A stretch of DNA of 64,000 bases, taken from the IMG/VR virus record IMGVR_UViG_3300043419_002586; one strand, given 5' to 3'. Position numbers and translations under genes: made by a program. The number at the start of each line of letters is the position of its first letter. Position 1 is the first letter of the stretch. Positions 1 to 32,074 of the stretch are shown piece after piece. The notes beneath the pieces were generated by a model. The model was given only the letters and a program-made list of their open reading frames with translations, was not told the DNA's origin and made no database searches. Origin of the DNA: a virus.

Positions 1-791
1 TTTAATTTATTTCCATTTACGTGATTGTATTTAAATTCAGGATTTATAAGTGCAGCAATCGGATCAATTTCAAACTCGTGAACAAGATTTAAATTAGCAT
101 CAATTTCAAATTTTTCTCTTTTTCTGGTAATTACTTCAACAATAAGTGGCCCAGCCGCTTGATAAATATCTCCGTGATTTCCTCTGCCTTGGATCATAGA
201 CGATCTGTAAACGTGTCCTTTGTTTATTGTCAGATCAAAATTTTCAAACATTTTTACATGACCAGAGCCGTTACAATAATTGCAAAATGCATCAAACTTT
301 TCACCACGGCCATAACAACTTCCACAAGGACCAGCATAATTTCGAACGTGCATAAAACCCAAATCTTGAACTATATAATGTTCTCCTGATCCCATACAAG
401 ACATACAAAGACTTTTATTTCCACTACCACCAACTCCTGAACAAGCTCCACAAGGCACTAAACGCTCATAATTAAGAGTTTTTACGACATTTTTGTAAAC
501 CTCTTCTAATTCAAGTTCAATAGTAACTGTTATTGGAGTATTAAGATTTTTCCTAAATGGATTTCTAGTGGTATTTCTAAATGGATTTGCAGGTGGTTCA
601 AAATGATGTTGCGGAGGAGGGGGATTTAAGATATCTTCATATGCTTGAGATATTTCTTTAAATTTTTCTTCTGATCCAGCCTCTTTATTTACATCAGGAT
701 GGTATTGCTTGGCTAATTTTCTATAGGCCTTTTTTGCATCATCTACTGAAGCATTTTGTGGCAAACCTAAAACATCATATGGATTTGGCAT
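1..791 (-). CDS. dnaJ: DnaJ (Hsp40) co-chaperone, class A-like; C-terminus runs off the window; not in the ORF track
   Basis: Manual translation from ATG at 791: [36 protein letters not shown] (J domain, HPD), then four CxxCxGxG motifs ([32 protein letters not shown]) and GRGNHG...GPLIVEV of the C-terminal domain; frame open to the edge. Confidence 0.95.
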
Positions 792-798
792 AAAGTCA

Positions 799-1473
799 TT
801 ATACTAATTTGGATAACATATTGGTAATTTTATTAGAAGGACATAAAGTATTTTCACCAACGCCAATATCAGCGTGTTGTCCAGTTACACCAATTACTGT
901 TCCTATAACAAGATTGTCAGTTCCAATTGCCATACCGCCAGATGAACCTTCAAGAATATCTGCATCTACAAAAATTACATCAGTCCAGGCAGGTAAATTT
1001 ATATCATTAATATTTTGATGAATATTTGAAACTCTACCAACAGTGGCTGTGTCGTGAAAACCCTCTGGAGAACCAATCACTGCTACAATATCACCAACTT
1101 CTATTGTATCACTGTTGGCAAACTGTAATGATGGGATATTTGATGGTATTCTTTCTGCTCTTATAGCTCCAGAGTCTATCGTGGGATCAGAAATTAAAAA
1201 TGTAGCTGGAATAAAATTTTTATTATCAAATGAAATAAGAATTTCTGTCAAAGTTTCATCTGCTGGGACAACGTGTCCAGCAGTTATGATAATATTATTG
1301 CCAATATGAAATCCACTACCTGACCAATTTTTCTTTCCAGATCTCACATAAATAGAACAAGAAGCTTGAAGTCCCAATTGTATTGTTTTTTTAATTGGAT
1401 CTTCAAGCTTTTCTGCGCTTTGGCTAGTCTTAATTAGACTATCCAAATAATTAACATCTAATTTAAAATTCAT
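799..1473 (-). CDS. Trypsin-like (HtrA/DegP-type S1C) serine protease, no PDZ domain, no signal peptide
   Basis: GSGF, ITAGHVV (His), IDSGAI (Asp), [30 protein letters not shown] (Ser). Confidence 0.9.
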
Positions 1474-1928
1474 TGTATTACTTTGTACAAAATCTCAGTT
1501 TCATCTACAGTTCCAAATCTTCTACTATCATCTGACTTTGGTAAATTATCACCGACAAGATAATAATGTTTTTTAGGAACCTTTAATTCCATCATATATA
1601 CGTCATCTACATTCTTTATTTTCAGAATTGAATGGTATGAATTATCAATTATTAGCTCATAAACACCATCTTTATTCATTATATAATAATAATATTCTTC
1701 CGGCGTATACAATATTCTTTTAACGATCAGAGTTCTATCATCACTCAAAGCAACTACAACATCACTTTTTTTGAAATTTTTAGTTTTTTTAGCTAACAAA
1801 ATCTGTCCATTTTTATAAGTTGGGAACATAGATTCACCAACAACAACGACCAATTTGTAAGGTTGTAAGTATGCTAATAAAAGTAAAATACAACCAATTA
1901 CCAAAGAAACAATTAATCTCTTTTTCAT
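1470..1928 (-). CDS. lepB: Signal peptidase I (S26) with single N-terminal membrane anchor
   Basis: Hydrophobic N-terminus, GESMFPT (Ser), IVKRI (Lys), GDNLPKSDDSRRFG box; SD GAGGTG upstream. Confidence 0.92.
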   Translation of the reverse strand: MKKRLIVSLVIGCILLLLAYLQPYKLVVVVGESMFPTYKNGQILLAKKTKNFKKSDVVVALSDDRTLIVKRILYTPEEYYYYIMNKDGVYELIIDNSYHSILKIKNVDDVYMMELKVPKKHYYLVGDNLPKSDDSRRFGTVDETEILYKVIQ

Positions 1929-1990
1929 GCTTCACCTCTTGTAATAAAAGGAGCTGAAGACATTTTTTCTTTTTAGCTTTTTGCTCGTAG

Positions 1991-2953
1991 TTAAGATTTT
2001 TTAACAGTGATAGTTGACCAATCAATATTTGCAAGTTTAGGAACACCAGGGCCCCAATTTTGTTCTTCTCCAGGTTGAACGTTTACATTTTGTAAACTTG
2101 AAATATTTCTTAATGCAGTCATCATATCTTCTTGGCAAAATTGGTAACCAAATTCTGGAAGAAGATTCTGATTTTTCAGTGCAGCTTTTATCAATGCACA
2201 AATACCAGCAACAAATGGAGCTGCTTGACTTGTACCTGACATTTTACAGTAGTTATTATTCAAGTGAGTTGAATAAATATTAGTGCCTGGAGCAACAATG
2301 TCCACTGTAAAATCCCTTGAGGTGAAAGTGGCTAAATTACCACTTTCATCCAGTGCAGCAACAGCAATAACTTCATCGTATCTTGCTGGGTAATTAACTG
2401 CGTGTGAATCGTTTCCAGCAGCTGCAACTACTATAATTCCTTTTGAAACTGCTTCTTTAATTAAGTCGTGAATAAAACTTGGTGGTTCAGATGGTGCACC
2501 CAGAGACATATTAATAATGTCCACACCTAAATCAATTGCTTTTCTCAAACCTGCAGCAATTGTGTCATAACTTCCACCACCACTATTGTCAAGAACTCTA
2601 ATGCAATATAGTTTTGCTTTAGGAGCTACACCAACAACACCAAAATCATTATCAGAGCCAGCAATAATTCCGGCTACGTGTACTTGATGACCGCTTCCTG
2701 CATCATACACACTTGCTTCACCTGTGCAATTGACTGCCTCATCGACCTTCCAAGCTTCTGCTAAATCTGCGTGTTCTGAAAAACCAGTATCAAGAACTGC
2801 TACTTTAATACCTTCACCTTGCTTAGAAACTTCCCAAACATCTTGAATGTTTGCAATAGCCATACCCCAGTTTTGAGTCTGCGATAATGCTGCAAACGGA
2901 ACCGATACAACTTTTAAGTCTTCTTCAGGAATAAATTGAATTCTATCTTGCAT
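1991..2953 (-). CDS. Subtilisin-family (S8) serine protease, intracellular type
   Basis: VAVLDTG (Asp), GHQVHVAGII (His), NMSLG, AAAGN, SGTSQAAPFVAG (Ser). Start moved to ATG 2953 because GAGGTG lies just upstream. Confidence 0.93.
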   Translation of the reverse strand: MQDRIQFIPEEDLKVVSVPFAALSQTQNWGMAIANIQDVWEVSKQGEGIKVAVLDTGFSEHADLAEAWKVDEAVNCTGEASVYDAGSGHQVHVAGIIAGSDNDFGVVGVAPKAKLYCIRVLDNSGGGSYDTIAAGLRKAIDLGVDIINMSLGAPSEPPSFIHDLIKEAVSKGIIVVAAAGNDSHAVNYPARYDEVIAVAALDESGNLATFTSRDFTVDIVAPGTNIYSTHLNNNYCKMSGTSQAAPFVAGICALIKAALKNQNLLPEFGYQFCQEDMMTALRNISSLQNVNVQPGEEQNWGPGVPKLANIDWSTITVKKS

Positions 2954-3005
2954 AATTTCACCTCGATACAATTATATTATTCAATATATATTTTTCCTTA
3001 TTCCT

Positions 3006-6000
3006 TCAGACTATGTGAAGAATTTGACTTTCTATTGGTGTTCCGTAAGTGGTTCCATCATAAGGCTTGACAATAAAAGAAATTGCCATATTTCTCAAAA
3101 CCACAGCAGAGTTTAATAAACTACCTTCTGCTATTTTATTTGACACTCCATTAGTCCATTCAAACCATTCAATGGTGGATAAATCTGAAGATCCATTAAA
3201 ATTATAATAGGCTTGAAGAACACTGTTGGCAGAAATTTTACTGTCAACTATTGTATTTGTTGACTTAATTTGAACATCGTACACATAAGGCGCAGACAAA
3301 CTTTTGACAATTATTGGTTGTGAAGTGTATGTGATTCCATAATCAAAATTATCATTAGGTTCAAGAGTAACATAAACTTGATCGTTTATGTTAAAATAAC
3401 CATTGGCAGCATTCAAATCTGCTTTTCTTTGAACCAATTTATCTCTGTAATTAGGTGTGGAATCTAATTCTTCAGTGGTTGTTCCGCCACCAGATGTTCT
3501 TGTCCTGTACCATCTTGTTCTTGGTTTATATTGCTGATTATCGGAAATATAACTGTAATCAACATACATTCTTGAAGAACTTGAAATTTGTTTTGTAGAT
3601 CCGACAGATGCATAAGAAACATCTGAATTGATTACTAAACTTTCAGCTTTCAATGATGGAATATTAGTATTCAAATAATGAGAATATACATTTGAATTTG
3701 AAACAGTATTATGAGTAAATTCAAAGTTATAAGTTGTTGATGCAGTAGAAGAATATGTCTCTACTTTTAATCCCAATCTATATGTTGAACTTTGAAGAAT
3801 GAATAAAGTAATAATATCGGTTGCAGATTTATTAGTATCAAATATAATTTTGCCATCATATCTGTCTAACTTGTATCCACCACGAACTATCTCGTTGTTG
3901 ACAAGCACTACAATCTTGCTGTCTTCAGGCCATCTTCCATTTACAGCATAATAGTTCTTGTAATCTGTAGAAACTGTACCTTCACCATAAGCTTCATACC
4001 TTGAACCAGTTCTACTAATTGAAACTTGAACAATGTTTCCTAATGGCACTTCTTGTCGGAATGTTATAGTTCCATTTACATTGTCAATAGTGTAAAGATT
4101 GGTAGCAACAAGAGAAGAATTTAAATAAACTTCAACATTGTCCGAAAGAAGCCAAGTAAATCTAGTGTTGTCATTATATACAAAGTAAGTAAAATTATTA
4201 TTTACAGACTTTACGCAGGTAAGTTTGTCATAAAATAAAGCATTTGTATATTTGTATGATCTTTGTCTTGAAGAAATTATTCCATTTTTATTTTTGATTA
4301 ATTCTTCATAATCATTCCAATTTGTACTGTTTCCTTTGCATATGCCCCAAGTCAATTTAGCTTTATCAGTGTCAGAATAGTCTGTTGAAAGAATGTATTC
4401 AAAAATATCATCTGTGGAAGTTAAAGCAGTTGTAAATAAATAGTTGACAGCTGGAGATACTTCAGTGTAATATAATTGACTTACATAAGGAGAAATTGGT
4501 AGACTGGTAGAATTATTCCATCCTTCTGTCATATTAATTTGAAAATCTAAATTTGTAATTTCTTTATTAACAATAGATGTGGCAGTTAATGTAATCCAAT
4601 CGCTGTAATTCTTCTTATCTGTGGAATATTTGTATTTGACTACGCAAGAACTATCTACACTTTGCCCTGTAGAAACTGTGTATGCTGTAGTAATTGATTT
4701 TATAAATTTAGAAGTTTCAAATTCTACAGATTTATTCCAAGAACCAGCAAATATTGTATTAGATCCACCGTGCAATAAAGCTGTAGTAATTCCAGACCAA
4801 TAAGAGCTAGAAGCATCAAAATACAATCCATCTGTATTTTGCACTAATTGTCTTATGTTTCCAGTGTTTGTTTTATCATCCACACCAAATACAACTAATT
4901 TTGTACCTTGATTGCCCCAGCTGTAATTAATATTGTCTTCAATACTCTTAATAGAAACTGATGTATTGTTATCAGCATCAGAAACAATAAATGTTAATGG
5001 AATGTATGAACTAGCCAATCTTTCCATCATATATTTTGAAACTGTAGGATTGTTTGGAATTGAATCTGCCAAGCCATTCCAATCTTGTCTTAAATATACT
5101 TCTACTTGATCTGTATTTCCAATTGATGTAGTAAATGATACTTTGCCTGTAGATGGAATTACTGTATATCCTGAACCTAAAACTGCACCATTCTTAATTA
5201 CTTCAGCATATGGATAATCTGTAGTATTCCAAGTAAATGTGTTTGTACCATCAGTTGAAAAAGTAAGTGTAGAGCCAATAGAGCTGCCGATTTTAGGAAC
5301 AAGATTTAATTGCTTATTGCTTTCATTCTTGTATCTTTCTTTTAATAAATCGAGTCTTATTAAGTTTTCATCTGACAAGTAATCCTTGTAAGTTGAAATT
5401 AAAGATGTGTCTGCTATTCCTGAAATTGCTGCTGGTTGTTGTCCTATTAAAGCATATTCAAGACAGTCATATAAATTACTATTTTCACCATCAAGTTTTA
5501 AGGAATTGATTATTGATGTTATAGCTGTTCCTGAATTTGTGAAACCATTGCCCGTTTCGTGTTTTATAGATGTGCCAAAAGTCCAAAGGTCTGCAAAAGA
5601 AAATTGAGCATAATATTGTTGATTTGTTCTAGCAAAAATATTTGTCAAAAGACTATTGTATCCATTTACAAATCCTGACGACATTTTCATAGAAGCAGAA
5701 TTATCAAATACATTAGAAATTACAAATTTTGGCTTAAGATACAAATAACCATCATCGCTAGAAATTACACCTTTGCTAACACCGCTATCCCAATTTACTT
5801 CGGTGTTATCATAATTGCCAATAGGAACAATGGTTTCTATTGGAGCATATGAATTGTCATAATGAGCTCTGAAGAAAAAGTCATAACTTGTGCTAATTCC
5901 AGTCCAACTTATAGCGTTTGAACTTGAATATCCTAATCCTGAAAATGGATTATTTGTTGATGCTTTCTTCCACTTAAATAGAGGAACAGAGCTTGCAGTT

Positions 6001-9000
6001 TCTTTTATGACAAGTGCTAATGTTGTTGATCCTGTACCTGGAATATCTAATGCACTTATGAGATTGAAACTTGTAAATCCACCAACATTAACGCTAGAAG
6101 ATGTAATAGGACTTGACGCAGCTAATTGTGTTTGTGGTTTTACATTGGCATCTACAGAATAAACATAAGCTGTTAAAGTTGTATTTGCTAAACTGTCATT
6201 GTAAGAAGAATTGGAAAGTCCATCTTGTTCCCTAATTGACAAGAATGCAGATACTTTTGATATTGTGCTTGCTGTTGATGATGTAGTGAAAGTTTGAGCT
6301 AAATATCCAACAGAGCCACTATCACTTGCAATGAATCTTATGTCATTTGAAGGCTTGGATGAGAATAAAACTGGGCTATATCCTTCACTTGTATTCTCAC
6401 CAGTTCTATACCAGCAATCACCATCATCAAGAGTATACCAAATTCCGTTATTCGTACAAGCCACCAAAACATTTTGAGTAATAGAATTAAATGTGGAGGA
6501 AAATACTTGTAGATCATAAACACAAGTTGGCAGAGTACCGATATAATCAGATCTTTCAAAAGTATTTCCTTCATCGAAAGATCTATACACTCCATTATTT
6601 GTTCCGATATAAATTTTTGATCTACCAGGAGTATTACCAACAGCAGCTTCAGTGTCAATAGCATAAGAGAAACAATGAAGTCCTCTTAAATATCTACTAT
6701 CAACAATAAAATCAGAAGAATTTACATCATCAGGGTAAGAATATTTCCAGTTTCTTACCTTTAAAATTCCATCATTTGTAAGGATAAACAATGAATTTGC
6801 ATATGTAGTTGTATTTGTTGAAGAAGGAACACTATATGCTTGGAAAGATTTGTAATACTTGCTTACACCTTCAGGATTGCCAGAAATAAACATTTTTCTG
6901 GGAACGAGAAATGATGAGAATGATGAATATTGAGTGTCATTACCCATCACAAAATAACCATCATCTCCTGCTGCGTGTAAACTTTCAAATTCTTGCACAT
7001 TACCTAAACTATTCTTGATATATGTGCCCTTGAAAATTCCATTTACATTATTAGTAGTAAGTTTCAAAAAATCAGATAAGAAATTGGTTGTTCCTAATTT
7101 GACACTTAATCCATCACTTGTTGCAAATGCTTCGAATAAAGTGCCATTCCAGAAACCAGTGAGATAAGCATTTTGTCTTGCTGATGATGTTTGCTTTATC
7201 CAAGAACTGTCATATTTCCAAAGACCATTAGAAGCGCCAGCAATTACATTAAGATTTGGATCAAGAGCAATATAATTAGCATCAAAAGCGCCATCTAATG
7301 TGCTTTCAAGTTCCCAATATTTAGTGTATTTCCAAACACCCTTCTCTGTAATAATTCTAGTTCCAGTACCATCTTTTGTGAGATTGACAATTCCCTTAAC
7401 TTGAATTGGGTCGCTTTCAAAATCATTTACAGTAGGAACAAGTTCAGTTCTATTTTTGAATGATGAATTTAAGCTATCAAATTTAGCATTACTTGAAAAA
7501 TTATCAACTAGTAATGTATTTTTCAAACCTCTTGTATCAGTCTGTGAAATTGTTGGTGCAGTGAAATCAAAAATAGTTGAATTTAATGATTTGATCTTTC
7601 TTGCTAATTCTTGAATATTAGAATTATTTTCTGATGCTAAATTGTAGGTTTGGTTGGATATAGCAAGATACAAATCATCTTCCAATCCAGATACAATCTC
7701 GTTTTTTATTCCATAAACTTCAGCGCCAACGTCGTAAGTAGTTGTGCTTGTAAGTCTTGCTACAGATAAAGTTATTTCAATAGGAAATACAGTATTGTCA
7801 ATAGATTTAACTACTGCTATTTCATATTTATTACCAGCTTTCAATTGTATTAAAGAATAATTGCTAATTCTCTGATTGATATATATTTTAGTATCAGTGT
7901 TAGAGTTTGCTTTCGCTAATAATGCAATAGGCGTTTTAGTCTTGAAAAGGGGTACATAAGTAGAAGAATGTGGCTTTGTTCCGGCATCAGATATTGTTGG
8001 AAAATCATTTACTATAGATATCTTTACATTATCGACATCGTTCTTTAATACTGACTGTGTAAAAGTGATTTTGCCTTCAGATGGACTGGAATAAAATGGA
8101 ATAGTGCTAGGTTCATTGTTTATATAAGTAAAAATTCTAGTACTGTCTGTTTGTGTGTCAGTCCAAGGGTCAGTGGTAAATGTATTAAAACTCTTTTCAT
8201 AATATAACTGATCGCCTGAGACATAGGTAGATCCCATAGCTACTAATTGATATGGATAATTTAAAGTAAAATTAGATACTTGATTATAATTTTTATCAAA
8301 TACTGAGAATTCTGTCTCATTTTCAGAAAAAGTATCGTTAGGTCTTTTCCATCGATAATTCAAAGAAACTGTGCTGGATACGTTTACATCTTGCCACAAT
8401 AATTCAGTGCTAACAAAGATGCCATTTGTTGTTCCAGCATACAACTTACCAAAATTACTGCCATCATCATAACTGTAAAGTGCATTTGTCGAACCTTGGA
8501 AGACAGGCTCCCAAAAAAGTTCAGAATAGGCTACAGATGTTCCTAATGATGATTCTTGGACTCTTGCAATGCCATTAGAATGTCCAATGAAATAATCTGT
8601 TGGAAATGTTGTTGAATTTCTTTGAACAACACAATTGATGACACTACTTGAACCAGCTCCAGAAGGTGTTGAATTTTGATATATCTTTAATCTTTGAATT
8701 TCCCATAGCACATCAGAAGTGCCAAAATCAAATGCATCTTCAATAACAAGATACCAAGTACTGTCGTTATTTACAATTCCGTTTGATACGTATACTGTTT
8801 TCCAATTAATAAATTCAGCATTTACATCAAGTTCGGTTGATCTAGTCCAACTTCCAGCAGATACAATATAAATTCCATTTTCAGCTTTATTAGTTTGATT
8901 TTTGACAAGAACAATATTACCAGCAATAACAGCAACACCATCAATAGTTTGCGTTCCAGTGAGTGCTATATCTTCTGTTGTGGCGCATAAAGCATTTGAG

Positions 9001-11588
9001 AAAGATGTTGATGTTTGTGAAAATGGAAGAGACCAATACTTACCTGTAGCATCTTCATAATATTTTGCTGTGTGAGTGATAAATGCCTGATAATCATTCC
9101 ACCAGATAAGATTATTTTTGTATGCGCCATCTTTAATCCAATAAATTCCCTTTACTGGCTCGTTAAATATTTGAGATAATTGGCTAAAATCACCAAAGTA
9201 TAAACCTTTCGTACTAGTGCCAATTGCTCCAACATACAGTGCTCTTTGAATTGTAATGTCATCAGTCTCACCAGAAACAAATATAGTTTTCTGTGTTGAT
9301 ATTTCTTCAATTCCAGAAAGATTATAAATATTTGTAATTGCTGTACCTGAAGAATTGTAGAAAGAGGAAATTTCATTCCAATTCCAGTTTTGATATGCTG
9401 TATTGTCAGGAATTATAGCATAGTAAACTTTTTCAGATGATAAACCATATTGATAAGTCTGATATGTTCCATCAGCTAATTTATCAGAAGAAATCTTAAA
9501 GCCAACTAATGTTTTTGCAATTCCACTAGTGTCTGTTGGTAATTTCAAATTTTCCCAAACATTACTTGTATTGTTATAATAAACTTTACCTAAAGAAGTG
9601 AAAGCATAAACATTCTTAAAGTAGTTTTCATTTGTTGGATAAATTATGTTATCTTGAAGCGATAAAATTTTTCCATAATCATTTTGCCAGTTAGTTGTTT
9701 GCGCTGTGTTACTACCTAAATTGAAGCTAAACAATCCTCTAGAAGATGATGTGTAAATCAAATTCAAACTAGTAATAATGTTTGCACTCTTATAGAAGTA
9801 GCTAATGTCATCGTTGTATTGAATGTAAGAATTTGTATTTTGAGGATACAGATATGACTTTCCAATTCCAGTGGTTAAAAATTTGTCTGGAGTAAAAGTC
9901 AAAGGTTGCTTATATCTATTCTCGCTGTAATGATTGATCTTTAAATTATTTATTGAAACCTTGCCTGTAGATATGCTATTGGCAGATAAATTCTTTATGT
10001 AATCATTTGTAAGATTGTTTATAATTTCAGTCTTACGTGTTTTAATTACAACAGATAAATCAAGGAAAGTATATTGATCATAATTAGGTATAGAACTTTT
10101 CAGTAATATACAGCCAGAATAAGGATTAACTGTATAGTGAACTGGATCTATCAATGTTTCTGCCAAATAAACTTCAGCAGTATCATATTGAAAATTTGTC
10201 CAAGAGAATAAGGTGTAAAGGTCAGTGGTTAGACCAGAAGCATTTGTGTATTGATAAATTGTTCCATCACTTAATTTGATATATGTGTTGAATGTAAGGG
10301 CTGTAGATAATAATTCTTGGCTACTATTTACTGCTATTAAATTTTTATCAACAGCATATGGTAAATACACCTCAAGCTTGGATGTTGATTTGATGCTTTG
10401 GTTTAGATAAATCTTATATGGGCTACTTGATTCACTTATTGTGTATTCTGAACTGGAAAGAAGAATGCCATCAAGTTTAACAATAGGTGTACCGTATGAA
10501 GAAATGGTGTCATTAAATAAGGTTCCATCAGAATTCTTCAATACAAAAATTGAAGAATTTTCATAGCTTGAAACTCCATCATTAGAAGAAGCTATCAAAA
10601 CTAAATAATTTTTAAGATCTATCTTTGCTGCAGTGTTTATTTCACCCAGATGCTTATGCTTCAAATAAGATAATTGAAGTTGTCTCTGAAATTCTCCAGC
10701 AGTTTCATTTATTTGATTTCTTCTTTCTTCGTATATAATTTCTGAAACAGTATTGAAATCAGTGTATGTAGTGTCTGCTTTGTAAATTACTGTGGCTAGA
10801 TATACAGCATTTGAATAAGTGTTATATTTTGCATCTGGAATTGATGGAAAAGATATATTGCAAATTTCATCTGATAAGGTTGATATTCCAGATTCAGCCC
10901 AAGCATAAAAAGTATTTGCTATAGTTTGTCTAAAATAACGGGGTTTTTCAGTTTTGGCAGCATATTTATCAATAATTCCATCACCTGTACTAACTTTTAT
11001 GCATTGTTTGAAAGCATCTTGGAAATAGAGGTTTGATGAGCCTAAAGTAAAGTTTGTTGATGAAACTGCGCCAAGCCAAAGTGTTTTTTCGTTAGTTGAT
11101 CCAGAACTTACAAAAACAACAAAATTATCAGAATAATCAGATGTTGTATTGAGACTTGAATGTCTTGTCCAGGTTGAAGATGAAACAGTGTAAACGCCAT
11201 TTTGTGTAGCTGTAGATTGATCTTTTACTAATACAATATCGCCAGCAACAACAGAAACTCCATCAATAGTTTGTGCGCCAGAAAGAGTGATATTTATTGT
11301 GGTAGCTGCTAAACAAGATACAGTGAAATCCAGATTTAATAGTGATAACTTTTGTCCATATTCACTTGTAGCGCTTGTATTATATCCATCTAGAAGTAAT
11401 ATTTGATCAGCTCTATTTTCTGATAATTTAGATACATCCCAGCCATTTATAACTCCAGGACCTAAAAAAGAGTATATGCCTGAAAAATTAGATTCAGCTG
11501 TAAGCATATTTTCATAGTCATAACCTGGATACCAAATATCGCCAAATTGTGAAAATAAAAACTTGTAAATTGATGTACGATTAGCCAT
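3006..11588 (-). CDS. Giant (2860 aa) multidomain virion fibre/adhesin-like protein: two TIDGV tail-fibre motifs, beta-propeller/Asp-box repeats, vWA domain, C-terminal Ig-like repeats
   Basis: ATTxxIxLxGxQTIDGVxVxAGxIVLVKxQ...NGxYxVS..WTR twice; YRSFDEGNTF and WYTLDDGDCW Asp-boxes; FDNSASM MIDAS motif; several YT(V/I)xxxxGxIxF repeats. Confidence 0.75.
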   Translation of the reverse strand: MANRTSIYKFLFSQFGDIWYPGYDYENMLTAESNFSGIYSFLGPGVINGWDVSKLSENRADQILLLDGYNTSATSEYGQKLSLLNLDFTVSCLAATTINITLSGAQTIDGVSVVAGDIVLVKDQSTATQNGVYTVSSSTWTRHSSLNTTSDYSDNFVVFVSSGSTNEKTLWLGAVSSTNFTLGSSNLYFQDAFKQCIKVSTGDGIIDKYAAKTEKPRYFRQTIANTFYAWAESGISTLSDEICNISFPSIPDAKYNTYSNAVYLATVIYKADTTYTDFNTVSEIIYEERRNQINETAGEFQRQLQLSYLKHKHLGEINTAAKIDLKNYLVLIASSNDGVSSYENSSIFVLKNSDGTLFNDTISSYGTPIVKLDGILLSSSEYTISESSSPYKIYLNQSIKSTSKLEVYLPYAVDKNLIAVNSSQELLSTALTFNTYIKLSDGTIYQYTNASGLTTDLYTLFSWTNFQYDTAEVYLAETLIDPVHYTVNPYSGCILLKSSIPNYDQYTFLDLSVVIKTRKTEIINNLTNDYIKNLSANSISTGKVSINNLKINHYSENRYKQPLTFTPDKFLTTGIGKSYLYPQNTNSYIQYNDDISYFYKSANIITSLNLIYTSSSRGLFSFNLGSNTAQTTNWQNDYGKILSLQDNIIYPTNENYFKNVYAFTSLGKVYYNNTSNVWENLKLPTDTSGIAKTLVGFKISSDKLADGTYQTYQYGLSSEKVYYAIIPDNTAYQNWNWNEISSFYNSSGTAITNIYNLSGIEEISTQKTIFVSGETDDITIQRALYVGAIGTSTKGLYFGDFSQLSQIFNEPVKGIYWIKDGAYKNNLIWWNDYQAFITHTAKYYEDATGKYWSLPFSQTSTSFSNALCATTEDIALTGTQTIDGVAVIAGNIVLVKNQTNKAENGIYIVSAGSWTRSTELDVNAEFINWKTVYVSNGIVNNDSTWYLVIEDAFDFGTSDVLWEIQRLKIYQNSTPSGAGSSSVINCVVQRNSTTFPTDYFIGHSNGIARVQESSLGTSVAYSELFWEPVFQGSTNALYSYDDGSNFGKLYAGTTNGIFVSTELLWQDVNVSSTVSLNYRWKRPNDTFSENETEFSVFDKNYNQVSNFTLNYPYQLVAMGSTYVSGDQLYYEKSFNTFTTDPWTDTQTDSTRIFTYINNEPSTIPFYSSPSEGKITFTQSVLKNDVDNVKISIVNDFPTISDAGTKPHSSTYVPLFKTKTPIALLAKANSNTDTKIYINQRISNYSLIQLKAGNKYEIAVVKSIDNTVFPIEITLSVARLTSTTTYDVGAEVYGIKNEIVSGLEDDLYLAISNQTYNLASENNSNIQELARKIKSLNSTIFDFTAPTISQTDTRGLKNTLLVDNFSSNAKFDSLNSSFKNRTELVPTVNDFESDPIQVKGIVNLTKDGTGTRIITEKGVWKYTKYWELESTLDGAFDANYIALDPNLNVIAGASNGLWKYDSSWIKQTSSARQNAYLTGFWNGTLFEAFATSDGLSVKLGTTNFLSDFLKLTTNNVNGIFKGTYIKNSLGNVQEFESLHAAGDDGYFVMGNDTQYSSFSSFLVPRKMFISGNPEGVSKYYKSFQAYSVPSSTNTTTYANSLFILTNDGILKVRNWKYSYPDDVNSSDFIVDSRYLRGLHCFSYAIDTEAAVGNTPGRSKIYIGTNNGVYRSFDEGNTFERSDYIGTLPTCVYDLQVFSSTFNSITQNVLVACTNNGIWYTLDDGDCWYRTGENTSEGYSPVLFSSKPSNDIRFIASDSGSVGYLAQTFTTSSTASTISKVSAFLSIREQDGLSNSSYNDSLANTTLTAYVYSVDANVKPQTQLAASSPITSSSVNVGGFTSFNLISALDIPGTGSTTLALVIKETASSVPLFKWKKASTNNPFSGLGYSSSNAISWTGISTSYDFFFRAHYDNSYAPIETIVPIGNYDNTEVNWDSGVSKGVISSDDGYLYLKPKFVISNVFDNSASMKMSSGFVNGYNSLLTNIFARTNQQYYAQFSFADLWTFGTSIKHETGNGFTNSGTAITSIINSLKLDGENSNLYDCLEYALIGQQPAAISGIADTSLISTYKDYLSDENLIRLDLLKERYKNESNKQLNLVPKIGSSIGSTLTFSTDGTNTFTWNTTDYPYAEVIKNGAVLGSGYTVIPSTGKVSFTTSIGNTDQVEVYLRQDWNGLADSIPNNPTVSKYMMERLASSYIPLTFIVSDADNNTSVSIKSIEDNINYSWGNQGTKLVVFGVDDKTNTGNIRQLVQNTDGLYFDASSSYWSGITTALLHGGSNTIFAGSWNKSVEFETSKFIKSITTAYTVSTGQSVDSSCVVKYKYSTDKKNYSDWITLTATSIVNKEITNLDFQINMTEGWNNSTSLPISPYVSQLYYTEVSPAVNYLFTTALTSTDDIFEYILSTDYSDTDKAKLTWGICKGNSTNWNDYEELIKNKNGIISSRQRSYKYTNALFYDKLTCVKSVNNNFTYFVYNDNTRFTWLLSDNVEVYLNSSLVATNLYTIDNVNGTITFRQEVPLGNIVQVSISRTGSRYEAYGEGTVSTDYKNYYAVNGRWPEDSKIVVLVNNEIVRGGYKLDRYDGKIIFDTNKSATDIITLFILQSSTYRLGLKVETYSSTASTTYNFEFTHNTVSNSNVYSHYLNTNIPSLKAESLVINSDVSYASVGSTKQISSSSRMYVDYSYISDNQQYKPRTRWYRTRTSGGGTTTEELDSTPNYRDKLVQRKADLNAANGYFNINDQVYVTLEPNDNFDYGITYTSQPIIVKSLSAPYVYDVQIKSTNTIVDSKISANSVLQAYYNFNGSSDLSTIEWFEWTNGVSNKIAEGSLLNSAVVLRNMAISFIVKPYDGTTYGTPIESQILHIV

Positions 11589-29191: not shown

Positions 29192-32074
29192 TTACATTCC
29201 TCCTAAAGAAATTGGCATATTTGTTCCTCTAACTTGAGCAGTAATCAAGTTGTTAGCTTTATCATAGCTATAATCAACAGATTGATAAACATATTTATCT
29301 GTTGAATTAACTGTCTGTCCTTGAAACACATTGATCATAAACTTGCCGTGAAAATTTAAGGGTTTGGCAACATAACAATTAAAAGAAATTGAACTAATAG
29401 GAGTTTTTGAAACTAATTCAATACTATCTGTAATTCTTTTTAAAACTTGTTGATCAGGAATTTCGTTTCTTTGCATTGACCACATAATGTATTTTTTGAA
29501 TCCGACATATGGTGGTTGTGAAGCATTGAAAGGAGCGTTTTGTAAATATCCTAATAAATCTACCTGAGATTGTATTGGTAAATTAGCGATAGAAACGGAG
29601 CCAGGAGAATATCTTTCGTCAGCCAAGAATCCAGTCATTGCTACACCAAATACTCTCACTCCTGATGCTAAGTTTTTAGTATCAGTGTTTATCTGATATT
29701 CATCTACTAAGAGACCGTGTATGTCATTTTGAAAATTTGCAAGATAATTTGTTGTGTTAGATGCGTTACTATTAAAAATATAAGCAGTACCAGCAGAAGA
29801 TAATCCAGTAAATTTTAAATCATTATCAACAAAATTATTTCTGCATTCAAGCTTGAATCCATATCTTTCAGCCCATCTAAAAGTAGGTAAAGAATAAGGA
29901 TTATTTAATCTTTCAAGTAATTTTCCTAGTTTTTCATATATTCTATCTAAAGGATTGAGCTTTATTAAATCCTGGTTGTTTACAGAGTTACTATTCAATC
30001 TTAGGTCTATTCCATAAATTGAACCGCCATTTGCTAAATCGGCATTATTACGAGAATAAAAAGACCAAAATCCTGTGCAAGCCATAACTGAGTCAATAGC
30101 AAGGTCATGTCGCATACCAGCGATCATCATATTTTTATCAAAATACAAATTTTCTAAAACAAATGATGCAATATCTGTACATTCGATTGTAAATGTACTA
30201 TCATTGCCTTTTCTTGAATATCTTGTGTTTGTAATAAAACCTTGAAAATATGGATACAAACTACCTTGAACATATCCAGCATCTATAGAAACTACAAGTA
30301 AGTTATTTTCAATTGCATTTATAAATTTTTGACCATCTAATGAATCAATATTCTTAAGTGTTATTGATGCAGTTTTTTTAATTTTTGATAAATTAGATAA
30401 TTCTGCTACACAATTTACACTCCAAGTTTCCACCCAAGAAGTGATATCTCCAACATCATAAAAAAGTTGACTTAATTGGGGGTTGACAAATTTATAATCA
30501 GTTGCATTTGAGCTTCCACTACCTAAGTCTGGGAATACAGTTGCTAGTACTCCAGGATGCGGAATTTCTACCTGTAAAAATGCTGGACCTTCTATTGTGC
30601 AATTGTATAAAAGCTTAAATAAAAGAGTTTGTCTATCAGGGTCAGCACTTGATGAAGATGGCGATGTGTATTCAGTAATATTTGCAAATTGAGGACCAGA
30701 TAATCTTAAGTCAGCAAAATATGAAATATTCTTATCTTTTGGATTGTCATCATTATAGCCAGTAGTTTGTGGCGATTGATTAATTCTATAAGATGACTTC
30801 TCAAATGAATCTTTAACAACTCGTAAAAATGAAACTATGTCAGGAATTTTTTTCTTAGAATACTTAAATTCTGCTGTTAAATAGTTTTTTGTCTTTAGTC
30901 TTGGCTGATTGTTATTAAAATTATTAAATATAATTGCTGAATATCTAAACTTAAGATTTGTATTTGATAATGATATTTCTACAAAAGTTTCTGGTGGGCA
31001 AAAAACCTCTCTACCACTAAAATTAATTACAGTGTTCCATCTAGTGATATCGGGACTAAAACCAATCAATAAATTTGGACCTACAAAATGAACATAGATA
31101 TCATAAGAGCCCATATTTGTCTTATCAAATACAGGTGCTATCAAATCTGTCTGAGTTATGTATGCTTTGCTATAAGGATCATATATTTTTAAGACTGGCT
31201 TGCTATCAATCTTAAATTCTATAAAAAAATCATTGATAAAATTATTATTTGCAACTTGTGGTTTTACTGCAATTTTTATAGCTGATGAAGTTTGTTGCAT
31301 ATTACTTACAGAAAAATTTATGTGAAAACCATTATTACCATTACTGCCTCTTGCTAAAATTGGCTCTGAGGTCCCATCTGGATTAAAAATAAAAGCATCA
31401 TTTTGATACACAGCATCATAAGAGGTTGGAAATATTCTTCTTATAGTAGTATTAGTTTTTTCTGATGTAACTTCAACTTGAGACCCACTAGAAGGATCTT
31501 TCACAGTTCTAAGTGTCCCAGTGTTTGCTCCTGAAATAGCTGGACCAATGTACTTATAAGCGTTAGTTGTACCGTCAATTATATGCCAAATATTGTAGGT
31601 AGTTAATACATTTCCAGCATTTACAAATGGGATTCTTGGAACGTGTTGAGATAAATCTGTAAAACTTTCAGATTGAGAACTTACAGATCCTTGCGTAGGG
31701 CTATCTACAAAAACTGGACTGTATCCAGTTGATGGACCTTTTAATCTATTCAATACTGGATCTACTTCACCTGGAACAATTGCACCAAAAGCAAATGTAC
31801 AAGATGATGCACTTATTGATGTGTTGATTTCTGGAATTCTTGCATTTTGTAAAGAAGATAAAACTTTTAATCTAGTGCTATATTTTGATTCAGTATTTCC
31901 ATTTGAATAAGTGTACGAGGGTTCAAAATCATAATTTAAAACGTTTAAATTGTCTTGAGACTTTGTAGCTGTAGAAGCCGAATATTCTCCAGAAAAAAAT
32001 CCACTTTCGGGAGCATTCATAATACTCAAAGTTACTTTTGTTTTTAACTGTCTTGGATCTGGGGAAAGGTTCAT
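29192..32074 (-). CDS. Baseplate hub / tail-tip-like protein
   Basis: C-terminal half has hub-like pattern ASITLKN...VSIDAGY...YFQGFIT...FTIECTD..., followed by ASGVRVFG and terminal VYQSVDYSY strands; position between fibre genes. Confidence 0.5.
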   Translation of the reverse strand: MNLSPDPRQLKTKVTLSIMNAPESGFFSGEYSASTATKSQDNLNVLNYDFEPSYTYSNGNTESKYSTRLKVLSSLQNARIPEINTSISASSCTFAFGAIVPGEVDPVLNRLKGPSTGYSPVFVDSPTQGSVSSQSESFTDLSQHVPRIPFVNAGNVLTTYNIWHIIDGTTNAYKYIGPAISGANTGTLRTVKDPSSGSQVEVTSEKTNTTIRRIFPTSYDAVYQNDAFIFNPDGTSEPILARGSNGNNGFHINFSVSNMQQTSSAIKIAVKPQVANNNFINDFFIEFKIDSKPVLKIYDPYSKAYITQTDLIAPVFDKTNMGSYDIYVHFVGPNLLIGFSPDITRWNTVINFSGREVFCPPETFVEISLSNTNLKFRYSAIIFNNFNNNQPRLKTKNYLTAEFKYSKKKIPDIVSFLRVVKDSFEKSSYRINQSPQTTGYNDDNPKDKNISYFADLRLSGPQFANITEYTSPSSSSADPDRQTLLFKLLYNCTIEGPAFLQVEIPHPGVLATVFPDLGSGSSNATDYKFVNPQLSQLFYDVGDITSWVETWSVNCVAELSNLSKIKKTASITLKNIDSLDGQKFINAIENNLLVVSIDAGYVQGSLYPYFQGFITNTRYSRKGNDSTFTIECTDIASFVLENLYFDKNMMIAGMRHDLAIDSVMACTGFWSFYSRNNADLANGGSIYGIDLRLNSNSVNNQDLIKLNPLDRIYEKLGKLLERLNNPYSLPTFRWAERYGFKLECRNNFVDNDLKFTGLSSAGTAYIFNSNASNTTNYLANFQNDIHGLLVDEYQINTDTKNLASGVRVFGVAMTGFLADERYSPGSVSIANLPIQSQVDLLGYLQNAPFNASQPPYVGFKKYIMWSMQRNEIPDQQVLKRITDSIELVSKTPISSISFNCYVAKPLNFHGKFMINVFQGQTVNSTDKYVYQSVDYSYDKANNLITAQVRGTNMPISLGGM

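Follow-up and report, generated by a model that had tools for sequence, protein, structure and literature searches.

Auxiliary chaperone and protease genes are known from phages, and some of them belong to the Hsp70 system. In jumbo phages, DnaJ occurs sporadically and is predicted to recruit the Hsp70 of the host (PMC7824862). DnaK and DnaJ have been reported in freshwater “moraphages,” and phage J-proteins acting on host DnaK, as well as DnaJ-dependent defense sensing, have been discussed for freshwater jumbo phages (PMC12619734). When full texts were searched for signal peptidase, subtilisin, and Hsp70 encoded by phages, the moraphage paper (PMC12619734) was the only phage paper returned, and the jumbo-phage review (PMC7824862) makes no mention of “signal peptidase,” “subtilisin,” or “HtrA.” Type I signal peptidases are almost unknown among isolated phages. 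Here we describe a locus in which a subtilase of family S8, a type I signal peptidase of family S26, an S1 protease domain of the HtrA type, and a DnaJ lie one behind the other. It stands at the beginning of a 64,000-nucleotide stretch of viral DNA (the window), which is bases 3310-67309 of the 122-kb IMG/VR record IMGVR_UViG_3300043419_002586 (G000). With about even confidence, we read this cassette as a phage-encoded proteostasis kit that is probably made together with the late virion proteins and whose parts would work in different compartments, rather than as one machine.

The four genes are consecutive, co-oriented open reading frames (ORFs) on the minus strand (1991-2971 for S8, 1470-1928 for S26, 799-1473 for S1, and 3-791 for DnaJ). 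They come directly after a gene for a protein of 2860 amino acids (3006..11588, minus strand), which is outside the cassette and serves here as context. A sequence-only reading of the window had placed the four genes back to back behind a giant gene, and the Pfam matches to the four ORFs and the spacer of 52 nucleotides between the giant gene and S8 confirm this. The spacers that follow are 62 nucleotides (S8-S26), a 4-nucleotide overlap (S26-S1), and 7 nucleotides (S1-DnaJ). Two more genes continue the string off the window on the strand of dnaJ. The first, orf72 (L002:2902-3120), codes for an acidic protein and overlaps the dnaJ stop with its start; the second, orf147 (L002:2465-2908), codes for a protein with an N-terminal transmembrane segment. 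From S26 to orf147, stops and starts overlap or nearly abut. The unit is six genes, not four: S8, S26, S1, DnaJ, orf72, and orf147.

The relatives of this phage are more than 20 IMG/VR contigs, found by searches seeded with S8, the helicase that follows orf147, and an S26 alignment. Every lineage member found has the order giant gene, S8, S26, S1, DnaJ, orf72, orf147, helicase, and orf126, and where the contigs continue, genes follow for an Hsp70 of about 565 amino acids, a MerC-like membrane protein, and a BFN-like protein. In the deepest relatives, identity is down to 32% for DnaJ, 36% for S26, 33% for the giant protein, and 63% for the helicase. Because the same order is seen in more than 20 contigs, with amino-acid identities as low as 32-36%, the arrangement is, on this evidence, not one of chance. 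The ratio of nonsynonymous to synonymous substitution (dN/dS) is 0.04-0.13 for every gene, a sign of purifying selection, and all functional and catalytic motifs are kept in seven diverged lineages. The neighborhood search proposed along with the sequence-only reading thus found the four genes linked in the same order in every detectable relative. The origin set against that reading, one recent block from a single bacterial locus, was tried and rejected as unlikely: identities within the lineage are as low as 32-36%, and among cellular S26 proteins the nearest one found, from Chthonomonadales, is about 30-37% identical, a comparison of identities only. In one lineage, a free-standing LAGLIDADG homing-endonuclease gene (L053:11159-11956) sits between S1 and dnaJ, both of which are undisturbed, and an RNase HII gene (L053:18595-19218) sits between hsp70 and the MerC-like gene.

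The S8 subtilase (1991..2953, minus strand; 320 amino acids) resembles the intracellular subtilisins (ISPs), with matches to Pfam PF00082 at an expectation value (E) of 2e-58 and to phrog_3677 at E 6e-76. Translation probably begins with the ATG at 2953, which is preceded by a GAGGTGA ribosome-binding site; this agrees with the end coordinate given in the sequence-only reading. Alignment to Savinase places the catalytic Asp (VAVLDTG), His (GHQVHVAG), and Ser (GTSQA), together with the oxyanion-hole Asn (AAAGND), where family S8 of clan SB has them, and these four residues do not vary among 7-9 diverged homologues. PF00082 is the only domain; as in ISPs, there is no signal peptide, no I9 prodomain, and no transmembrane or hydrophobic segment. 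The alignment to mature Savinase begins at residue 26, and the N-terminal extension of about 25 residues contains a conserved QFIPEEDL motif, with Q-F-I-P-E at residues 6-10, where ISPs have LIPY/F. In the ISP pro-peptide, the LIPY/F motif follows the pattern [LVI]-[IFLV]-P-[YFH], lies across the active site, and is inhibitory (PMC6220982). The ISP structures 2x8j, 7xr8, and 6f9m are among the S8 matches. The ISPs (MEROPS S8A) and the phage S8 proteins of phrog_3677 share with the cassette enzyme the triad, the oxyanion Asn, the lack of a signal peptide and I9 prodomain, an N-terminal extension of about 25 residues, and a hydrophobic-Ile-Pro motif at the equal position. It differs from the ISPs in having F-I-P-E instead of the published pattern, and in a C-terminal extension of about 60 amino acids. 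The S8 “protease” genes of phrog_3677 come from large Bacillus and Moorella phages (Kirov, PJN02, SP-15, Goe8, and MTATph1), and their products are 37-40% identical to the cassette S8.

The S1 protease domain (799..1473, minus strand; 224 amino acids; Pfam PF13365, Trypsin_2, E 5e-17) begins with an ATG that overlaps the S26 stop (ATGA). Aligned to DegP (2zle), it has the His (TAGHV), Asp (DPTIDSG), and Ser (GSSGG) of the chymotrypsin fold, and they are kept in 7 lineages; its best structural-sequence matches are DegP, DegQ, and HtrA2. The earlier assignment to S1C was right about the HtrA-type protease domain, but the rest of an HtrA protein is missing. Pfam finds no PDZ domain in the 224 amino acids, which end with the protease domain, and there is no signal peptide or hydrophobic N-terminal segment of the kind expected of an extracytoplasmic protein. 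Unlike HtrA, DegP, and DegQ, the cassette S1 lacks PDZ, signal peptide, and anchor, and it is therefore predicted to be cytoplasmic and to do without PDZ-mediated activation. It also differs from HtrA in an N-terminal extension of about 45 amino acids.

In the proposed kit, the ISP-like S8, with its short pro-peptide, and the PDZ-less S1 would stay in the cytoplasm and break down or trim proteins that are misfolded, aborted, or of host origin. Remodeling of host envelope proteins, which had been offered as a second role for the module, does not suit either enzyme, since neither has an export signal; it could hold only for S26. A cytoplasmic location also fits a different role, namely host take-over or counter-defense. 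Here the proteases would degrade host defense factors, or bulk protein for the recycling of amino acids, and DnaJ would redirect the host or phage Hsp70, in the way of the RB43 J-protein that acts on DnaK and sigma-32. Both peptidases, S8 and S1, are cytoplasmic endopeptidases of broad families, ISPs have been linked to bulk protein turnover (PMC6220982), and both phage J-proteins on host DnaK and DnaJ-dependent defense sensing are under discussion for freshwater jumbo phages (PMC12619734). Moreover, the S8 genes of Bacillus phages lie in early or metabolic regions, where their neighbors are genes for ribonucleotide reductase, dUTPase, RNA ligase, and ClpP. The cassette S8, on the other hand, lies behind virion genes and beside S26, S1, and DnaJ, and its place at the end of the virion run, together with a motif common to structural genes (see below), points to late expression. 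The phage also brings its own Hsp70 and GroEL, which suits the folding of its own proteins. We therefore regard host take-over as unlikely, though worth keeping in view.

The S26 type I signal peptidase (1470..1928, minus strand; 152 amino acids; Pfam PF10502, E 3e-17) would be the part of the kit that acts outside the cytoplasm. Aligned to SpsB (4wvh, 4me8), it has the catalytic Ser33 (GESMFPT), Lys70 (VKRI), and box E (GDN..SDDSRRFG). The Ser, the Lys, and GDN..S.DSRRFG are invariant in 12 diverged homologues, and the dyad and box E are those of S26A (P-type) enzymes. A hydrophobic segment at residues ~5-23, after MKKR, is kept in the homologues and qualifies as a membrane anchor. By the positive-inside rule, the catalytic domain is expected to lie outside the cytoplasmic membrane. 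The enzyme is thus like the small type I signal peptidases of Gram-positive bacteria (SpsB and SipS; 4wvh, 4me8) in its single N-terminal anchor, its Ser-Lys dyad (SM.PT and KR boxes), and its GDN..S.DSR box. It differs from them in being phage encoded, in having only 152 amino acids, and in forming a phage-specific subfamily. Anchored in the cytoplasmic membrane with the Ser-Lys site outside, S26 would remove the signal peptides of exported proteins. Its clients may include signal-peptide proteins of the phage itself, with AFA or SFA cleavage sites: three or four such proteins, called by a crude heuristic, are encoded in the largest contig of the lineage (G001) and could be its substrates.

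Isolated phages almost entirely lack both S26 and the bare S1 domain, and the few matches look like host contamination of multi-contig records. Two “bacterial” S26 matches are closer than the one from Chthonomonadales, and they are short phage fragments binned into metagenome-assembled genomes (MAGs). Of the short contigs L083 (CAUYTX010000197.1) and L088 (JAIOYD010000055.1), the first was binned into a MAG of Gammaproteobacteria and the second into one of Rickettsiaceae; both are pieces of the phage lineages considered here. In L083, a piece of S8 is on the strand opposite to S26, through either rearrangement or misassembly. Another lineage of huge phages has a string of genes for a GH108 lysozyme, an unknown protein of 198 amino acids, an S26 of the same 150-residue subfamily, and an unknown protein of 414 amino acids (L054:8742-11702, L055:8652-11696; also L088).

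Upstream of the S26 gene, the transcript can fold. A hairpin in the S8-S26 spacer (1930..1959, minus strand) pairs the S26 ribosome-binding site with an upstream CUUCAGCUC-type sequence, and all 7 of the diverged lineages folded have it as their structure of minimum free energy. Across their alignment, 85.8% of cells are paired, compared to 47-58% when the partners are slid, and 4 pairs are changed on both sides. An alternative pairing partner exists, since the same GCUCUU segment can also pair with an AAGAGC just 3' of the S8 stop. Such an arrangement suggests a switch that is coupled to the translation of S8 or to temperature. As the S26 site is held in the hairpin and the genes from S26 to orf147 overlap or abut, the translation of the five distal genes may be gated by it. 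One could go further and consider the six genes as a regulated late line for export and folding. In such a line, DnaJ and an Hsp70 without GrpE would keep pre-proteins or giant virion proteins competent, S26 would mature the exported ones, and the hairpin, as an RNA thermometer or an S8-coupled switch, would gate the string from S26 to orf147. If true, the phage would have a stress-style translational control of its own for a chaperone-protease operon; we consider this a long shot.

DnaJ has 327 amino acids in full, of which 263 codons are in the window (1..791, minus strand), with 192 nucleotides beyond its edge (L002:3117-4100). The J domain (PF00226, E 6e-19) has its HPD, as YHPDVNK or FHPDVNK, in 7 of 7 lineages. 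The zinc finger (PF00684) scores 31.7 bits, just below the cut-off of 32.7, and the C-terminal substrate domain (PF01556) matches at E 9e-13. Four CxxCxGxG repeats together with the substrate domain are as in class A J-proteins, and the fourth repeat deviates in two lineages. The Gly/Phe-rich region of class A is absent; residues 57-85 are a short Pro/Phe-rich linker without a Gly run. No hydrophobic N-terminal segment is present. With HPD and CxxCxGxG in place here, and with the three peptidases aligned to Savinase, SpsB, and DegP, the earlier statement that the catalytic residues are intact throughout the cassette holds.

A folding role for DnaJ is plausible because of the Hsp70 gene nearby. 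An Hsp70/DnaK of 564-568 amino acids is encoded about 3 kb past DnaJ, just beyond orf126, in three relatives (G001, G002, and G003). The present record ends inside orf126, and a 94%-identical relative has Hsp70 just beyond; we infer from the relatives that this phage has its own Hsp70 just past the end of the record. GroEL is encoded in G001 and G009, away from the cassette. GrpE was looked for without success in five relatives, and two of these are 88-89% complete. In the proposed kit, DnaJ would hand unfolded clients to the Hsp70 of the phage, and so would help to fold the many very large multidomain proteins.

The end of the unit is marked by an intrinsic terminator after orf147, a hairpin with a 14-bp stem (-18 kcal/mol) and a T-run at about L002:2414-2447. 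A hairpin and T-run between orf147 and the helicase are present in 10 of 10 lineages, and their sequence varies among the deep ones. The terminator is the only strong intergenic one on the minus strand in a scan of about 53 kb, from the divergent region at window ~49,900 to the start of the contig. The co-oriented run of about 50 kb has no gap above 62 nucleotides, counting one small conserved ORF. The cassette had been described as closing a 50-kb virion gene block, and the position of this sole strong terminator just past it supports that description, but the last genes are orf72 and orf147, not DnaJ. Neither of these, nor orf126, has any match in Pfam or PHROGs. The orf147 family, collected by exhaustive HMMER search, has 57 representatives, and when 24 members were scanned against PHROGs, neither a holin nor any other function came up; a “holin-like” label is neither supported nor excluded.

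Beyond the terminator comes a UvsW-like helicase, with gyrA nearby, and this raises the question of whether the genes of the cassette are merely neighbors. DnaJ and Hsp70 could serve replication, as in lambda-like helicase loading or remodeling, since the two flank the UvsW-like helicase, while S26 and orf147 serve export or lysis and S8 and S1 are independent accessories. The helicase does lie between dnaJ and hsp70, but the helicase and the Hsp70 unit have promoter-like boxes of their own, and the terminator parts them from dnaJ. For lysis, one could point to the transmembrane segment of orf147 and to L054 and L055, where S26 is two genes from the GH108 lysozyme; yet no GH108-type lysozyme is present in the cassette lineage, and orf147 lacks a holin-family match in Pfam or PHROGs. 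Each family is also found separately in other phages, as independent accessories would be, but the tight translational coupling from S26 through orf147 argues against this. We judge the account of unrelated neighbors to be quite improbable. A conserved ORF of 23 amino acids (MKIFEQIEEMMNQ...) lies between the helicase and orf126 (L002:523-594, plus strand), with an AAGGAGG site and a hairpin of its own. It is opposite in strand to all its neighbors, and relatives retain it, though its sequence has diverged.

The clues to expression come from the spacer between the giant gene and S8. This spacer contains no hairpin or terminator. It has a bipartite element, AGG-N19-TGAAT, followed by a TATAAT box and the GAGGTGA ribosome-binding site (2979..3005, minus strand), and the element, as AGG-N18-19-(A/T)GAAT, is present in 7 of 11 lineages. 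In the more general form AGG-N17-20-[AT]GAA[TC], it occurs 5-45 nucleotides upstream of gene starts 7 times in the record, compared to 0.8 expected, which puts it at the top among 49 permuted control motifs; upstream of starts in G001, it occurs 11 times, with 3.3 expected. Both genomes have it before the gene for a fiber-type protein of 1451 amino acids and before the head-protease gene. Besides the site in front of S8, those in the record include genome 27614-27639, 90689-90714, and 100779-100804. It can be considered a candidate class of phage promoter. The AATAATATAAT box upstream of S8 does not recur as a motif, and a scan for consensus sigma-70 promoters and terminators gave results at chance level. 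The shared motif is suggestive, but not proof, of the co-expression of the cassette with structural genes.

A second type of start is seen outside the cassette. After the orf147 hairpin, a TGnTATA(A/C)T box is placed 6-8 nucleotides before the helicase ATG. Boxes of the type (G)GTATAAT/TATACT at this distance from the ATG, with no Shine-Dalgarno sequence, are present there (L002:2390-2464) and upstream of the genes at window 29192-32074 and genome 79488-80804 and of the portal gene (genome 90775-93135). The mRNAs of the helicase, the portal, and one giant gene may thus have little or no leader, whereas strong GAGGTG sites are used in the cassette.

The 2860-residue protein upstream has PHROG domains for tail fiber, head decoration, and virion structure (E 3e-48 to 6e-27), and its gene can reasonably be called a putative virion gene. 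A dedicated maturation line for such proteins could then be proposed, in which DnaJ and Hsp70 fold the fiber- and adhesin-like proteins of 1000-3500 amino acids and S8, S1, or both cut them at specific sites, for example to remove pro-pieces used in assembly. The cassette begins 52 nucleotides after the giant gene with no terminator in between, shares the single terminator of the block, and has a promoter-like motif in common with the fiber gene. Where the giant protein is down to 33% identity, the cassette still has this position; the collinearity of the whole genome explains this equally well. A conserved cleavage motif or pro-piece was not identified, the ISP-like S8 genes of Bacillus phages are not beside virion genes, and S26, which elsewhere stands beside a lysozyme, is unable to act on cytoplasmic proteins without a signal. 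This makes a dedicated maturation line rather doubtful. The proposal it resembles, a folding and proteolysis module for giant virion proteins, was part of the sequence-only reading, and it survives in part. The genes are intact, under selection, and in a fixed order, with no terminator after the giant gene, a shared motif, and an Hsp70 nearby; no observation makes the giant proteins substrates of the peptidases, however, and the linkage is unspecific.

Phage maturation was taken in that same reading to rely normally on one prohead protease or on intramolecular chaperones, and this phage has a canonical head protease. PHROGs identify a portal gene, a 1383-residue protein with an N-terminal head-maturation-protease domain (phrog_18299), and a capsid gene about 80 kb from the cassette. 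With the canonical head protease beside portal and capsid, neither S8, nor S26, nor S1 is the prohead protease. None of the three belongs to the prohead-protease families either, which are assemblin-like or ClpP-like and lie beside portal, scaffold, and capsid genes.

Several observations weigh against a proteostasis kit. The relatives are collinear throughout, so conserved adjacency is weak evidence of functional coupling and speaks rather for age and retention. The set is not an obligate unit, since S26 occurs in the GH108 lineage, whose record has no S8, S1, or DnaJ, and since no peptidases of these kinds lie near the DnaK/DnaJ pairs of huge phages such as Lak and LR756502. The promoter-like motif is loosely defined and is missing upstream of S8 in 4 of 11 lineages. 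The signal peptides were called by heuristic and only in the relative G001. In addition, Q-F-I-P-E of S8 matches the published ISP pattern only in part, with positions 1 and 4 outside it, and the AlphaFold2 model of S8 (9-sequence alignment) has a mean predicted local distance difference test (pLDDT) score of 54, with about 27 for residues 1-43, which is too poor to judge the pose of the N terminus.

The record itself has a CheckV completeness of 34% and thus covers part of an uncultured phage genome of roughly 360 kb. The largest contig of the lineage, G001 (358 kb, CheckV 89% complete), is collinear with the record along the entire shared length; the match runs from 310 kb to the end of G001 and resumes at its start. 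G001 is therefore probably a near-complete genome, circularly permuted relative to the record. Host DNA in the contigs, as might be suspected from an IMG/VR “provirus” label and from host-like secreted proteins, was considered and rejected, given a uniform GC content of 0.29-0.39 and the wrap-around collinearity of the two genomes. A DNA-level search found no relative among isolated phages. The genes of G001 include those for GroEL (L072:14976-16589), an ECF-type (extracytoplasmic function) sigma factor (L072:3372-3947), a DUF1559 protein with a prepilin N-methylation motif (L069:2190-3086), and the small AFA/SFA signal-peptide proteins (L069:1765-2073, L072:2816-3337, and L073:17196-17852). 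The DUF1559/N-methyl protein hints at a host in the Planctomycetota-Verrucomicrobiota group.

The proteostasis kit, if it is one, bears on a wider problem. Very large phages must fold and assemble many proteins of 1000-3500 residues in a dying cell. Here, an own Hsp70, DnaJ, and GroEL, two cytoplasmic serine endopeptidases, and a signal peptidase, with GrpE not found, suggest a partial replacement of the host's proteostasis and export processing. The lineage is widespread in freshwater, and the cassette genes are small, intact, and easy to express, which makes these ideas testable without an isolate.

Each part of the cassette belongs to a known enzyme family, and the cassette can be considered a variant of the known auxiliary chaperone and protease genes of phages. 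As an example, Bacillus phage Kirov has a J-domain protein two genes from its S8, an independent neighborhood of J-domain, S8, and ClpP genes. Parts of the Hsp70 system are encoded by moraphages, by Lak and other huge phages, and by RB43, with its J-protein Rbn; likewise, the large aquatic phage described here has a full-length zinc-finger DnaJ and an Hsp70. The strong Shine-Dalgarno sites, along with the lack of a match to Peptidase_S77, the family of the T4 gp21 type, suggest a lineage other than the moraphages, although the Peptidase_S77 search was weak, with zero matches anywhere, controls included, and so is uninformative. What sets the present locus apart from Lak and LR756502, which have no such peptidases nearby, is the fixed place of its DnaJ in a string of translationally coupled genes that includes three serine peptidases, in a lineage that is old, with DnaJ down to 32% identity, and not the product of a recent transfer from a host.

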